The notes beneath the pieces were generated by a model. That model was not told the origin of the DNA. It ran no database searches and saw nothing but the letters and a program-made list of their open reading frames with translations. Positions 10,186-16,553 of a stretch of DNA of 64,000 nt are shown piece by piece; the stretch's first letter is position 1; each line of letters starts with the position of its first letter. The position numbers and the translations under genes were made by a program. The DNA is taken from assembly GCA_964491805.1 (NCBI GenBank), contig CAZBGU010000001.1, positions 1,446 through 65,445 of the forward strand, read 5' to 3'. This DNA comes from an uncultured Candidatus Saccharibacteria bacterium. GTDB taxonomy: Bacteria > Patescibacteriota > Minisyncoccia > Phycocordibacterales > UBA5272.

Positions 10186-10554
10186 ATGTACACTATGTCG
10201 ATGCGCGATCTATTTGAAAATGTAAAGGGGGTTGGTATTGATATTGTCGATGTTAGTAGATTTTCTTCTCTTGGAGAAGACGAAAAGAAATCTTTTTTAA
10301 AAAAAGTGTTTTTTGAGTCAGAAATTGCATATTGTTCTTCCTATAAAAATGAAGACGTCCATTTTGCGGGTATGTTTGCACTTAAGGAGGCAGCAAGTAA
10401 GGCCCTAGGTATTGATCAGTTTCCGTTTGCAGAAATTGAAGTCAGACATGATACATCTGGCGCCCCTGTGGCGTGGTATAAGGGAAGTAAACTGAATCTA
10501 AAAGCATCGATTAGTCATACAAATACAATCGCAATTGCAATTGCTGTTGTATAG
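10186..10554 (+). CDS. acpS: Holo-[acyl-carrier-protein] synthase AcpS (4'-phosphopantetheinyl transferase)
   Basis: 'GVGIDIVDVSRF' N-terminal motif and AcpS-like size (122 aa). Confidence 0.8.
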   Translation: MYTMSMRDLFENVKGVGIDIVDVSRFSSLGEDEKKSFLKKVFFESEIAYCSSYKNEDVHFAGMFALKEAASKALGIDQFPFAEIEVRHDTSGAPVAWYKGSKLNLKASISHTNTIAIAIAVV

Positions 10555-10580
10555 TTTTCGTGGTATTCTTTCCGTGTACT

Positions 10581-11621
10581 ATGAAAAAATGTATTGTCCT
10601 TGATCTTGACAACACTCTTTGGGGTGGCGTAGTTGGAGAAGATGGAATTGACGGTATTTCTCTATCGTTGCAATCACCTGGAAACAGCTTCATTGCTTTC
10701 CAACAGGCACTCCTTGATTGTTACAACAGAGGAATAATTCTTGCGATCAATAGCAGGAACAACCCTGAAGATGCTTGGGAAGTAATCAGAAATCACCCAA
10801 ACCAGATTCTTAAGGAACATCATTTTGCTGCTGCGAGAATAAATTGGAATGATAAGGCAACTAATATTCGAGAACTTGCTAAGGAGTTGAACATTGGTCT
10901 TGACTCGATGGTTTTTTTTGATGACGATGCAACGAATAGAGAGCTTGTGAAAGCCCTTATTCCAGAAGTTACTGTTCCAGATCTACCTGAATCTCCAAAA
11001 GAGTATACAAAGTTTTTCAACTCTCTCCCATATTTTACTTCTGAAGTTATTACTGATGAAGATAAGATGAGAGGAAATTTGTATACAACGGAACGATTGC
11101 GAAAAGAAGAGGAAAAGCTACACGATTCAAAAGATTCTTTTCTGAGTAGTCTTTCTCTTGAGTTATTTATTTATAAGAATGATTCAACGTGTATTCCTCG
11201 TCTTTCACAGTTAACAGAAAAAACAAATCAATTTAACGTTCTTAAGAGACCGTTAACCGAACAAGAGGTTGCTTCATATATTATGGATAGTGCGTATGAT
11301 GTATACCATGGGAAACTTTCTGATTGTTTTGGTGACTATGGGGTTATTATTTTTGCGATAGTTAAAAAAGAAAAGAATACATGGAATATAGACTCCCTTC
11401 TTATGAGTTGTCGAGTATTTGGAAGAGGTGTTGAACAAGCTTTTTTGTATTTTATTCTTGCGGAAGCAAGAAAAGTTGGTGTTAGTAAAGTTTCTATCTC
11501 GTTCTCTCCTTCAGAAAAAAATAGACCAGCGCAAGAATTTATTGATACTTTTTTTGACTCTTCTAGAAATGCCAAACATTCAGTACAGCAGCCAGGGTGG
11601 ATTCGTGTCGTGCAACTATAA
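10581..11621 (+). CDS. HAD-superfamily IIIC / FkbH-like loading enzyme (HAD phosphatase plus C-terminal GNAT-like domain)
   Basis: HAD motif I 'IVLDLDNTLWGG'. Family architecture as in FkbH/OzmB/ZmaN. C-terminal 'LLMSCRVFGRGVEQAF' GNAT-like region. Confidence 0.6.
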   Translation: MKKCIVLDLDNTLWGGVVGEDGIDGISLSLQSPGNSFIAFQQALLDCYNRGIILAINSRNNPEDAWEVIRNHPNQILKEHHFAAARINWNDKATNIRELAKELNIGLDSMVFFDDDATNRELVKALIPEVTVPDLPESPKEYTKFFNSLPYFTSEVITDEDKMRGNLYTTERLRKEEEKLHDSKDSFLSSLSLELFIYKNDSTCIPRLSQLTEKTNQFNVLKRPLTEQEVASYIMDSAYDVYHGKLSDCFGDYGVIIFAIVKKEKNTWNIDSLLMSCRVFGRGVEQAFLYFILAEARKVGVSKVSISFSPSEKNRPAQEFIDTFFDSSRNAKHSVQQPGWIRVVQL

Positions 11622-11628
11622 AACTGCC

Positions 11629-13974: not shown

Positions 13975-13979
13975 ATAGT

Positions 13980-15437
13980 ATGCTTTTCAATTCTTTGTCC
14001 TTTCTATTGTTCTTCCCAGTCGTATTTTTTTTGTACTTTCTTGTACCTTCCAAATTCAAAAGATGGTTATTAATTGTGGCAAGTTGTTACTTTTATATGT
14101 CTTTTGTTCCTGAATATATCTTAATTTTATTTTTTTTAATTACTTTAGATTTTTTTCTTGCCCAGTATTTATATAAACAAGATGGATGGAGGAGACGCAT
14201 GCTGCTAACGGTAAGTGTTGTTGCCAACATCGGAATGCTTTTCATTTTCAAGTATTTCAATTTTTTTAATGAAAATATAGCTACCCTTGCTCAATATCTA
14301 CATTATTCGTATACACCACTACTCCTCCATCTTGTTCTTCCTCTTGGACTCTCCTTTCATATTTTTCAAGGACTTGGCTACGTTATTGAAGTCTATAAAA
14401 GAAAGCAGGAACCTGAGAAGTCTTTTTCTGTATATACATTATATGTTTTATTTTTTCCACAAATGGTTGCCGGCCCGATCGAAAGACCTCAGCACTTTCT
14501 ACCTCAGCTTCACAAGACGATTAATTTTGATGTTAACCTAGCACGAAAAGGCCTTGAACGAATGTTGTGGGGGTTTTTCAAAAAAATGGCAATTGCAGAC
14601 CAGATCGCTCAAGTTATTAATCCTCTGTATCTAGATTTACCAAAGGAAAACTTCTCACTCTTGCTTATTGCAATTTTATTTACATACCAAATTTACTGTG
14701 ACTTTTCTGGATATTCTGATATTGCCATTGGAGCTGCAATGATGCTTGGGTTTAATCTTACAGAGAACTTTAATAGACCTTTTGCAGCAAGAACAGTTGC
14801 TGACTTTTGGAGAAGATGGCACATCTCACTCTCTTCATGGGTAAGAGACTATCTATATTTTCCACTTGTACTTGGCTCGGGCAGGGTGTCGAAATTTAAA
14901 ATGTATTATGCTCTACTTTTCACATTTCTTGCTATTGGTTTATGGCATGGGGCAAACTGGACATTTATTGTCTTCGGACTTCTCCATGGTGTCTATATAG
15001 TTGTAGAATCTTATACCGAAGGATTTCGAAAAGTAATATCTAATTTATTTTTAGCGAGATATTTCCCGGGTGTGTACCAAGCAGTTCAAACTGTCATTGT
15101 TTTTTCTTTTGTTGCTTTTACGTGTATTTTTTTTAGATCGGAGTCAGTTGGAGACGCGCTGTTTTTTATCAGCAAGATGACTACTTTTGAGCATGATTCT
15201 ACTTTTTTTACTTTGCACGATTTTACTAAACATACCGGCAATACTGTGTTTTATTCAATACTTCTCAACATTATAATTGTTGAGATAGCTCAATATGTAA
15301 TGGAAAAGAAAAAAAGTTTTTACATCTTTGACTCTTTAACTAAAGGTTTAAGGTTTTCTTGGTATTACTATATTATCGCTACGATTATCTTGTTCGGCTA
15401 TTTTGGTAATCAGTCATTTATTTATTTTCAGTTCTAA
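13980..15437 (+). CDS. MBOAT-family membrane-bound O-acyltransferase (DltB/AlgI/PatA-like)
   Basis: Multi-TM. Invariant-His motif '[21 protein letters not shown]'. Confidence 0.85.
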   Translation: [485 protein letters not shown]

Positions 15438-15440
15438 ACC

Positions 15441-16553
15441 ATGAAACTTTTTCTAAGTAAATTAAGTATATTTGTACTACCGATATCTATACTGTTCATT
15501 TTTCCAGTATTTGTCGTGACCTACGGAAGGGAATATGTTTCGTACAAGGATGTAGTCATAAGACAAGAGAAAGATCCAAGTATTCTTTTTGGTTTTGCAT
15601 ACAATGGAGTATCTTTCTATCCTTATAAAGAGTTTTTGACAAAAAGAAAAAGAGCGCAGGTTGTTGCCTTAGGAACATCTCGGGTTATGCAGATTAGGAA
15701 AGAGTTTTTTATTGCTGGCACAACATTCGTTAATGCGGGCGGTGCGGGCAAGAGTGTAGCTGCTATGAAATCGTTTATTGAAAGTTTGCCTGACGATGGT
15801 TCTGTTAAGGTCGTTCTACTTGGTTTAGATGTAGATGTTATTTCTGGAGAAAAAGGGGTACCAGAAAGTATTGGTGAAGATATCCTACCGCTTCGTTTTT
15901 CTGAGATTGTAGTTACTATGTCACGTAGAATATATCTTGATTATATTTCTCATAAGTACACCTTAGGCGAAATCATACACGCCAACAGTAATTCTTCGTC
16001 GATAGGTATATCCGCACTGCTTCATGATGATGGTTTTCGTGGTGATGGTAGTTATAAGTATGGAGTAGCAATGAAGAATCTTTCTCGTGCTACCGATATC
16101 CGAGAACAGATAGCTGCACACGCAAAGGACATCAGTAACTCTTCTTATAATCTTGAAACAAAGAAAAAAAATATAGAAAAGAATCTAGCGGCGATTGATG
16201 AATTGATATCTATTGCTAAGAAAAAAAATATTGAAATAATTGGTTTTATTCCACCATATCCGACACCTGTTCATGACGCTCTAACGTCTAATGGTGATCT
16301 CATTGGATACACATCACAAAGCCTGAGCGATCTTTTTGTTCGACGCCAGCTCTCGTACTTTGATGTATCGTCTATAACGACTTTTGGTGGAAAAGAGACG
16401 GAGTTTGTCGACTTTAATCACGGTACTGATGTTTTGTATTTGCGTATGATGATGTATATGGCTGACCGTTCTGAGAGCCTTTCAAAACTGACTAATATTA
16501 ATTTACTTAAGGCAATTCTCAAAAAATCTCAAAGTGATTTTCTTGATTTTTGA
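15441..16553 (+). CDS. Membrane-anchored periplasmic-type protein, possible DltD/AlgJ-like partner of the MBOAT
   Basis: N-terminal TM anchor, 4 nt after the MBOAT stop. Weak similarity only ('ALGTSRVM'). Confidence 0.3.
   Translation: MKLFLSKLSIFVLPISILFIFPVFVVTYGREYVSYKDVVIRQEKDPSILFGFAYNGVSFYPYKEFLTKRKRAQVVALGTSRVMQIRKEFFIAGTTFVNAGGAGKSVAAMKSFIESLPDDGSVKVVLLGLDVDVISGEKGVPESIGEDILPLRFSEIVVTMSRRIYLDYISHKYTLGEIIHANSNSSSIGISALLHDDGFRGDGSYKYGVAMKNLSRATDIREQIAAHAKDISNSSYNLETKKKNIEKNLAAIDELISIAKKKNIEIIGFIPPYPTPVHDALTSNGDLIGYTSQSLSDLFVRRQLSYFDVSSITTFGGKETEFVDFNHGTDVLYLRMMMYMADRSESLSKLTNINLLKAILKKSQSDFLDF

Follow-up and report, generated by a model that had tools for sequence, protein, structure and literature searches.

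An FkbH-type acyl carrier cassette adjoining an MBOAT-SGNH pair in a Patescibacteria glycan locus: a candidate carrier-protein-dependent envelope acylation pathway

A 64,000-nucleotide stretch of DNA from an uncultured Candidatus Saccharibacteria bacterium (GenBank assembly GCA_964491805.1, contig CAZBGU010000001.1, positions 1,446 to 65,445 of the forward strand; hereafter the window) carries, at 10186-16553, an operon in which a gene cassette for a carrier-bound acyl group adjoins a membrane-bound O-acyltransferase (MBOAT) along with its SGNH-fold partner. With moderate confidence, we read the operon as one pathway, in which glyceryl-acyl carrier protein (ACP) would be converted through pyruvoyl- to lactyl-ACP, possibly O-methylated, and the acyl group would then pass via His281 and Tyr482 of the MBOAT and Ser80 of the partner onto the neighbouring glycan. 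A first-pass annotation, made from the sequence alone, had proposed a Dlt-like system in which an FkbH-type loader, a carrier protein, and tailoring enzymes feed an MBOAT. This core idea passed all computational tests that were run, but the methyltransferase proved accessory, the acyl shuttle proved fused to the MBOAT, and the linkage of cassette and MBOAT proved not exclusive.

Eight open reading frames (ORFs) on the plus strand fill 10186-16553, the same boundaries as in the first-pass annotation, and the gaps between them, in gene order, are 26, 7, 10, 1, 4, 5, and 3 nt. The operon thus consists, as had been claimed, of eight co-directional and tightly spaced genes. For the genes of the FkbH-type protein, the methyltransferase, the MaoC protein, and the short-chain dehydrogenase/reductase (SDR), the starts at 10581, 11629, 12801, and 13222, respectively, were chosen; with these the overlaps vanish, the mechanically called ORFs beginning too early. 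Gene families were assigned by profile searches with Pfam and with TIGR/NCBIfam models that have curated cutoffs, and the matches agreed with the family labels given earlier. The same gene set, with 40-70% identity at the protein level, was found again in dozens of independent contigs, and this recurrence places the arrangement beyond chance. Promoter and terminator scans of 8.7-17.6 kb gave counts at the level of shuffled sequence and were uninformative.

The first gene, acpS (10186-10554, plus strand), encodes a holo-ACP synthase (4'-phosphopantetheinyl transferase), with 70.3 bits on TIGR00516 (cutoff 59.8) and 60 bits on Pfam ACPS; its product presumably activates the carrier protein of the cassette. 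The second (10581-11621, plus strand) encodes the FkbH-type loader, a HAD-IIIC phosphatase joined to a GNAT-fold transferase domain. The mechanical ORF of this gene, 10560-11621, begins at a GTG at 10560, and the ATG at 10581 is the start common to homologues. The ATG is probably the true start, giving a protein of 346 amino acids (aa), in agreement with a 100% identical 346-aa database protein. Against TIGR01686, for which the cutoff is 146.65, the protein scored 288.4 bits over profile positions 2 to 315 of the 323, and against the HAD-IIIC model TIGR01681 it scored 80 bits; its C-terminal domain is predicted to adopt the GNAT fold, so that the family and the GNAT-like domain named in the first-pass annotation were both recovered. 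The structure model, of moderate confidence overall (predicted local distance difference test score 76, below 50 in the HAD cap region), was used solely to assign the folds of the two domains. By sequence, the sole solved relative was the HAD part of BF1531 (3slr, E 1e-37).

Approximately 8,000 FkbH homologues were scored. The motif DLDNT lies at 10602-10616 and the Ser-Cys-Arg motif with Cys277 at 11406-11414. In an alignment of 21 homologues, the HAD motifs DLDNT, S58, K92, and D114-D115 were invariant, as was LLMSCRV with Cys277, and the same residues occur in the HAD-IIIC protein of a Bacillus thuringiensis zwittermicin-type nonribosomal peptide synthetase/polyketide synthase (NRPS/PKS) cluster and in the Sinorhizobium meliloti homologue. 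In OzmB, the conserved cysteine of the C-terminal domain is reportedly the site of the glyceryl-S-enzyme intermediate. Family membership suggests that the window's enzyme uses 1,3-bisphosphoglycerate and forms glyceryl-ACP. FkbH and an ACP together yield glyceryl-ACP, and the characterised FkbH enzymes act in PKS/NRPS pathways (PMC7489565).

A dedicated ACP of 74 aa is encoded at 12575-12799 (plus strand), with the phosphopantetheine serine, Ser33, in a WDS motif at 12665-12673. As a single sequence it matched the PP-binding model marginally (22.2 bits against a cutoff of 20.8). A profile built from 21 cassette ACPs, however, matched solved ACPs over the full length (E 1e-15 to 1e-10), and W31-D32-S33 was invariant across all 21. 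This result bears out the earlier view of the ORF as a carrier protein with a phosphopantetheine serine.

Directly after the carrier protein gene lies that of a MaoC-type single-hotdog (R)-specific hydratase/dehydratase (12801-13217, plus strand; MaoC_dehydratas, 71.6 bits; hydratase motif GDHNPLH at 12906-12926), the nearest solved proteins of which were human 3-hydroxyacyl-thioester dehydratase 2 (3ir3, E 7e-26), a dehydratase of ACP thioesters, and PhaJ (1iq6). It is followed by the gene of an FabG-like SDR ketoreductase (13222-13974, plus strand; adh_short, 93.7 bits), with GAMGYIG at 13258-13278 and YILAK at 13693-13707; this protein scored 31 bits on the ketoreductase domain model and 84.5 bits on TIGR01830, under the equivalog cutoff. 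In FR901464 and lankacidin biosynthesis, dehydratase-ketoreductase (DH-KR) proteins turn glyceryl-S-ACP into lactyl-S-ACP, a published precedent for the glyceryl to pyruvoyl to lactyl chemistry that the first-pass annotation had proposed (PMC4765723).

Two other assemblies of the region were compared with the window. L001, assembled from the same organism at a coverage of 3.6, shows 14 substitutions relative to the window over 6.7 kb; 12 of these cluster in two patches of the SDR gene (window 13436-13807), among them a change of R182 to a stop. L002, the third assembly, is 100% identical to the window. The SDR differences of L001 are likely sequencing errors, but L001 may represent a strain in which the SDR is inactivated.

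The gene at 11629-12564 (plus strand) encodes a class I S-adenosylmethionine-dependent methyltransferase, matched by Methyltransf_23/12/31/11/25 with E about 1e-14 to 1e-8. No family was assigned to its N-terminal approximately 135 aa in the Pfam scan, its similarity to solved structures was a weak one to UbiG, and the FkbG-type family Methyltransf_3 was not among its Pfam matches. The gene is missing from most related cassettes (L004 and L006, for example). In L008, its orthologue follows MaoC, and more distant relatives adjoin cassette genes in L084 and L160. Thus, the methyltransferase listed in the first-pass annotation is present in the operon but lies outside the conserved core; it is an optional, accessory tailoring gene.

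The seventh gene (13980-15437, plus strand) encodes the MBOAT membrane acyltransferase (Pfam MBOAT, 80.9 bits), to the C terminus of which an acyl-shuttle motif is fused. Its His281 lies in WRRWH (14808-14822), and FIYFQF with Tyr482 (15417-15434) forms the last six residues before the stop codon. H281, H323, and Y482 were kept in at least 95% of 43 related MBOATs, and FxYxxF stands at the C terminus of the cassette-linked ones. An exact look-up of the 485-aa MBOAT returned no match, other assemblies calling later starts. The closest solved relative was DltB (6bug, 8jem; E 1e-29), with WRRWH aligned on the WNRWH of DltB and its His on the catalytic His there, and the score on the DltB model TIGR04091 was 170.3 bits, under the cutoff of 375. 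In the Dlt system the FxYxxF motif is carried by DltX, and PatA and other acyl-CoA-dependent MBOATs have it fused to their C terminus, its tyrosine being the acyl carrier between the MBOAT and the SGNH partner (PMC12148441). The label "Dlt-like" given earlier needs correction: the fused FxYxxF, the lack of a DltA, and the score below the DltB cutoff make the transmembrane half PatA/AlgI-like and not strictly Dlt-like. As a whole, the system would resemble Dlt in its use of a carrier protein and PatAB/AlgI in its fused shuttle motif, yet it belongs to neither.

The last gene (15441-16553, plus strand) encodes a 370-aa, N-terminally membrane-anchored protein. The transmembrane-anchored partner of the first-pass annotation was thereby confirmed and further identified as an SGNH fold with a Ser-Asp-His triad: S80 in GTSR (15672-15683) and D324 and H327 in DFNH (16410-16421), a DxxH motif, were invariant in an alignment of 36 sequences. 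This partner, presumably the final transferase, matched no Pfam or NCBIfam model. Its family is large: 1,423 representatives lie at E <= 1e-30, and the count rises to 4,352 when the threshold is relaxed to E <= 1e-3. The few names that the homologues carry in their sources read "hypothetical protein", except for one SGNH/GDSL label.

Some other cassette-linked MBOATs are followed by partners that differ from that of the window but are likewise membrane-anchored (L021:12825-13979, L090:4535-5632, L007:13850-14926, and L016:8575-9639). Those of L021, L090, and L007 have a GDS motif, and those of L021 and L090 also a D-x-H-W motif like that of AlgJ/AlgX; the L016 partner has no GDS motif, only a D-x-x-H-like one. 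The partner family thus appears interchangeable, the constant set being FkbH, ACP, MBOAT, and some SGNH protein. In L006, a second MBOAT follows the first cassette over two overlapping ORFs (15167-16656), maybe frameshifted, with a second partner gene next to it.

Built on the gene content, catalytic motifs, folds, and conserved linkage observed here, the proposed pathway would run as follows. AcpS would phosphopantetheinylate the 74-aa ACP at Ser33. The HAD domain of the FkbH-type enzyme would dephosphorylate 1,3-bisphosphoglycerate, with the glyceryl group held on Cys277, and the GNAT-fold domain would pass it to the ACP as glyceryl-S-ACP. By analogy with the DH-KR proteins of FR901464 and lankacidin biosynthesis, MaoC would strip the 3-hydroxyl to give enol-pyruvoyl/pyruvoyl-S-ACP, which the SDR would reduce to lactyl-S-ACP; the same analogy suggests the lactyl identity of the acyl group. 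The methyltransferase might, speculatively, O-methylate the acyl group. From the gene context, we infer that the ACP hands over to the MBOAT, which on the cytoplasmic side would accept the thioester-bound acyl group, His281 moving it to Tyr482 at the outer face; the SGNH partner would accept it on Ser80 and esterify an acceptor hydroxyl. The MBOAT and SGNH steps are modelled on the mechanism shown for PatA/PatB and Dlt (PMC12148441).

The hand-off to the MBOAT draws on gene neighbourhoods, which were compared across 160 related loci (numbered L001 upward), with an FkbH-anchored survey of 80 species-representative genomes plus look-ups (82 loci), a partner-anchored survey of 80 metagenome loci, and a neighbour-joining tree of 43 MBOATs. 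These surveys bore out the predicted co-occurrence of the genes in related genomes. Contigs of Sungbacteria and other Patescibacteria carry the same cassette with MBOAT and partner, the identity being 40-70%. In the tree, the clade of the window's MBOAT was cassette-linked in 16 of 16 loci, with the other linked lineages scattered deeper, and wherever the partner was at least 32% identical to the window's, the cassette was present (8/8 evaluable loci). The partner directly followed an MBOAT in every metagenome locus where the contig holds both. In most linked loci, no other acyltransferase that could use the acyl-ACP lies within 7 kb.

Gene order varies among the linked loci. The MBOAT-partner pair stands between SDR and MaoC in L006, and the MBOAT comes directly after the ACP in L021, L160, and L164. 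It lies upstream of or inside the cassette in six loci from five different phyla (L016, L018, L028, L054, L081, and L084; hosts Patescibacteria, Micrarchaeota, Nitrosopelagicus, Polyangiaceae, and Ignavibacteriaceae). Most revealing is a split MBOAT, found in L118 (4765-11023), L128, L146, and L147 and partially in L116 and L117. Here, a core ORF (approximately 360-400 aa where complete) is followed by acpS-FkbH-ACP-MaoC-SDR, then by a membrane ORF of 124-143 aa, equivalent to the final third of the window's MBOAT and with PFIYFQF at its end, and then by the partner, so that the genes for the acyl-ACP separate the two parts of the transmembrane machinery. Content is graded as well: FkbH, ACP, and MBOAT only (L084, L155, L164, and S. 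meliloti pSymB); the same with MaoC; with MaoC and SDR (most of the window's clade); and with the methyltransferase in addition (the window and L160). The gene content of related loci thus parallels the order of the proposed reactions.

Beside FkbH in the 82 loci, we counted ACP in 76, MaoC in 49, acpS in 38 (archaeal loci among them), SDR in 32, a left-handed beta-helix (LbH) protein in 31, and MBOAT in 16. These counts mark acpS-FkbH-ACP(-MaoC-SDR) as a widespread unit of glycan loci. Its bacterial carriers belong to Patescibacteria, Acidobacteriota, Nitrospinota, Bacteroidales, and Clostridia, its archaeal ones to Nitrosopumilales, Bathyarchaeia, Thor- and Heimdallarchaeota, and Woesearchaeota. 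Archaeal loci with acpS, FkbH, and ACP, most of them also with MaoC, are L022-L024, L031-L033, L040, L045, L047, L049, L051, L054, and L055; their cassettes usually have as neighbours the gene of an LbH acyltransferase and one like that of a polysaccharide deacetylase. Patescibacteria and the archaea of the Thaumarchaeota, Asgard, and DPANN groups are largely devoid of ACP-based fatty acid synthesis, on which the archaeal lineages are not expected to rely, and this may explain why the cassette has an acpS of its own. In a Paceibacterota locus (L013:12410-13198), a gene of the Antibiotic_NAT (aminoglycoside 3-N-acetyltransferase) family directly follows the cassette SDR, which suggests another type of consumer for the acyl-ACP.

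On S. meliloti pSymB (L167, CP050512.1), positions 815-5849 encode an MBOAT, a 409-aa protein, an ACP, and a 628-aa FkbH-like protein, and an FkbH homologue was found on approximately 40 Sinorhizobium megaplasmids. The pSymB MBOAT has Asn at the position of the invariant catalytic His (YRRWNMTL). The 409-aa gene, annotated as "TonB-dependent receptor", was tried as an orthologous partner and rejected, its product having no similarity to the window's partner and no Pfam family.

The probable acceptor, judged from adjacency, is the glycan of the Wzx/Wzy-type biosynthesis locus at 16616-34058, which was delineated by Pfam scans. Its glycosyltransferases comprise two GT-D and two GT32 proteins and one each of GT4, GT25, and GT2; it further encodes DegT, a PglD-like LbH protein, a PglF-like dehydratase, an AT3 acyltransferase, a carbamoyltransferase, an FkbM methyltransferase, Wzx, and a Wzy_C protein. 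The AT3-family acyltransferase (minus strand) and the carbamoyltransferase lie at 18174-21114, and with both in the locus the glycan may bear several acyl or carbamoyl decorations. The window's LbH protein scored 105 bits, a generic level also seen in loci without a cassette; together with PglF/DegT, it forms a self-sufficient bacillosamine-type set.

Several observations weigh against the pathway as proposed. The FkbH cassette stands without an MBOAT in 66 of the 82 loci, among them 4 of the 10 long loci whose FkbH is most closely related, and clearly serves other acyltransferases too; conversely, MBOAT-partner pairs with distant partner homologues mostly occur without the cassette, in Wzx/Wzz glycan loci, and the pairs of L103, L110, L123, and L126, which score as high on the MBOAT profile, sit in glycan loci with no carrier protein within approximately 8-10 kb. 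The link is thus not exclusive in either direction. The 43 MBOATs yielded no residue signature dividing cassette-linked from unlinked ones. Five positions do separate the window's clade from unlinked MBOATs, but they are not common to the independent linked lineages and so reflect phylogeny rather than function, and they were rejected as a signature of a donor switch. The fused FxYxxF architecture has so far been tied to acyl-CoA donors (PMC12148441). In the window itself, DegT and the PglD-like LbH protein (22414-23097), 5.8 kb downstream, could in principle use an acyl donor. These points would fit two independent modules, the cassette feeding a cytoplasmic acyltransferase that acts on a nucleotide sugar (for instance, a PglD-like LbH enzyme on a DegT product, by N- or O-acylation) and the MBOAT-SGNH pair using acetyl-CoA for ordinary O-acetylation. 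LbH enzymes that use acyl-ACP are known in LpxA/LpxD, the cassette lies beside LbH in 31 loci, against 16 for MBOAT, and beside Antibiotic_NAT in L013, and the window has DegT, LbH, and a PglF-like gene. We nevertheless regard this explanation, the main rival, as unlikely: the 16/16 and 8/8 linkage of the closest MBOATs and partners speaks against it, the interleaved or split loci (L006, L021, L118, L128, L146, and L147) are hard to explain by it, and in most linked loci neither an LbH enzyme nor another acyltransferase lies within 7 kb. Moreover, the LbH protein of the window has a generic score and belongs to the self-sufficient PglF/DegT set, and the AT3 acyltransferase is already there and could perform ordinary O-acetylation.

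The architecture and the hand-off could also be as proposed with an acyl group that is not of lactyl type, namely glyceroyl (MaoC and SDR acting elsewhere), pyruvoyl, or methylated glyceroyl, for which the di-O-methylglyceroyl groups on Campylobacter flagellar glycans provide a model. Neither MaoC nor the SDR is an orthologue of the DH-KR proteins of PKS type, which makes the lactyl assignment one by analogy alone and counts against that part of the pathway. The minimal FkbH-ACP-MBOAT clusters (L084, L155, L164, and S. meliloti pSymB) imply glyceroyl transfer there, many cassettes have MaoC and no SDR, and the window carries an extra methyltransferase; furthermore, cj1302, an FkbH-domain gene, lies in the flagellar glycosylation locus of Campylobacter jejuni (PMC7099621), and N-glyceroyl groups on nonulosonic acids are known (PMC5378307). 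However, MaoC and SDR stand between ACP and MBOAT and are kept in most of the window's clade, and their types fit the documented dehydration and ketoreduction of glyceryl-ACP (PMC4765723), so we consider a non-lactyl group improbable in the window. Still further from the evidence, and in our view barely credible, is a polyketide-type building block for a secondary metabolite (methoxymalonyl or hydroxymalonyl, a tetronate precursor, or a lactyl starter) or a Dlt-orthologous D-alanylation. Characterised FkbH enzymes do all belong to PKS/NRPS metabolism (PMC7489565; zwittermicin-type cluster), and the closest solved relative of the MBOAT is DltB. Against this, the MBOAT reached 170 bits on TIGR04091 where 375 is the cutoff, and the neighbours of the operon are glycosyltransferases, Wzx, and Wzy, related loci likewise being glycan loci. 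The proteins scanned between 4.8 and 34 kb included no PKS/NRPS or ketosynthase, no adenylation domain of the DltA kind, no FabH-like protein, and no dehydrogenase of FkbI/FkbK type or of the acyl-CoA or 3-hydroxyacyl-CoA dehydrogenase families, and the absence of an FkbI-type acyl-CoA dehydrogenase asserted in the first-pass annotation thus held over this range. Dlt orthology, a methoxymalonyl extender pathway, and a tetronate pathway were rejected because their defining genes are absent from this scanned neighbourhood.

Elsewhere in the window, two products are encoded directly upstream of acpS (6947-10173): an ATPase resembling TrwB/HerA and a protein that is secreted and has Lamin-tail and PKD domains. 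Such genes are typical of Patescibacteria genomes, and those of the window are also present in L001-L003. The assignment of the window to Patescibacteria was drawn from the closest homologues and from neighbouring genes typical of that group. Two neighbouring ORFs at 50757-51212 and 51233-51688, each of 151 aa and mirrored by an equally long antisense ORF, look like tandem paralogues.

The operon recombines known modules into an architecture that is widespread and would contradict the current generalisation on MBOAT donors. According to a 2025 mechanistic paper, MBOAT/SGNH pathways besides Dlt have no carrier protein, Dlt being the sole one with a carrier and the others using acyl-CoA (PMC12148441). 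No description of FkbH plus MBOAT envelope acylation was found in the open-access literature searched, although an earlier account may exist elsewhere, and within that literature the earlier statement that the architecture is undescribed holds. The papers in which FkbH and MBOAT occur together deal, by their titles, with aeruginosins and suomilide and not with envelope acylation, and among those listed none combined FkbH with DltB or AlgI. More broadly, and tentatively, since we place it slightly short of probable, the operon may represent a second carrier-protein-dependent MBOAT-SGNH envelope pathway after Dlt, fed by a self-contained, horizontally mobile C3-acyl cassette (acpS, FkbH, and ACP, with or without MaoC, SDR, and methyltransferase). 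This cassette would be a plug-in module for the surface glycans of bacteria and archaea, handing glyceroyl-, pyruvoyl-, or lactyl-type groups to whichever MBOAT-SGNH pair, LbH, or Antibiotic_NAT enzyme adjoins it.

If this is so, MBOATs with a fused shuttle motif can also take acyl groups from ACP, delivered by a loader unrelated to that of Dlt, and the loci with a split MBOAT and small protein would be natural intermediates between the fused PatA/AlgI-type form and the DltB plus DltX form. The FkbH family would extend from polyketide/NRPS metabolism into cell-envelope biology. The cassette would also give a genetic basis for glyceroyl- or lactyl-type groups on glycans, such as the N-glyceroyl group of Tannerella pseudaminic acid, the origin of which was stated as unknown (PMC5378307). 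It is common, being prominent in Patescibacteria and present also in Thaumarchaeota, Asgard, and DPANN archaea, and the MBOAT-ACP-FkbH cluster of S. meliloti pSymB offers a related system in a cultured, genetically tractable organism.

Among known systems, PatA/PatB (peptidoglycan), AlgI with AlgJ/F/X (alginate), and the cellulose and secondary cell wall polysaccharide systems likewise have an MBOAT with fused FxYxxF followed by the gene of an N-terminally anchored SGNH protein. PatA/AlgI-type systems, however, reportedly use acetyl-CoA and no carrier protein (PMC12148441), whereas the operon has an ACP, a phosphopantetheinyl transferase, a loader, and tailoring enzymes. With the FkbH pathways (FK520 FkbH, OzmB, ZmaN, and the tetronate FkbH-like proteins), it shares a loader of the TIGR01686 family and a dedicated stand-alone ACP adjoining it (PMC7489565), and the loader has the HAD motifs and the SCR cysteine of the zwittermicin-cluster homologue. 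Those pathways sit with PKS/NRPS genes, whereas the operon sits in a glycan locus with an MBOAT and a UbiG-like methyltransferase. The proposed order of reactions, dehydration of glyceryl-S-ACP and then reduction of the alpha-keto thioester, is that of lactyl-S-ACP formation in FR901464 and lankacidin biosynthesis, where a single protein combines DH and KR as domains of PKS type and a polyketide is primed with the product (PMC4765723). The operon instead has a stand-alone MaoC hotdog protein and an FabG-like SDR, and we propose that its product leaves the cell as an ester. In Campylobacter flagellar glycans, the nonulosonic acids bear glyceroyl-type groups; the cj1302 locus, in which no MBOAT partner is known to us, would acylate, if at all, a nucleotide sugar, by N-acylation in the cytoplasm. 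As in the operon, cj1302 is an FkbH-domain gene in a glycan-modification locus; it was mentioned there in passing, with no mechanism reported (PMC7099621).

The Dlt system (DltA, DltC, DltB, DltX, and DltD) likewise combines a small carrier protein, an MBOAT, and a membrane-anchored SGNH protein and has the conserved catalytic His of the MBOAT and the FxYxxF tyrosine shuttle. Its shuttle is the separate DltX, and DltB does not have the C-terminal FxYxxF region that the window's MBOAT carries; a separate version of approximately 130 aa, a small membrane protein like DltX, occurs among the relatives of the operon only in L116-L118, L128, L146, and L147. The operon partner has the SGNH fold, but its sequence gave no match to the DltD family in the profile searches, and the presence of an acpS in the operon is a further difference. 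The adenylating DltA is the loader in Dlt, whereas the operon has the FkbH-type HAD/GNAT protein and no AMP-binding domain in its eight proteins or in the neighbours scanned. Finally, Dlt transfers D-alanine to teichoic acids, whereas the acyl group of the operon is proposed to be a C3 hydroxy acid that would be built and tailored on the carrier.

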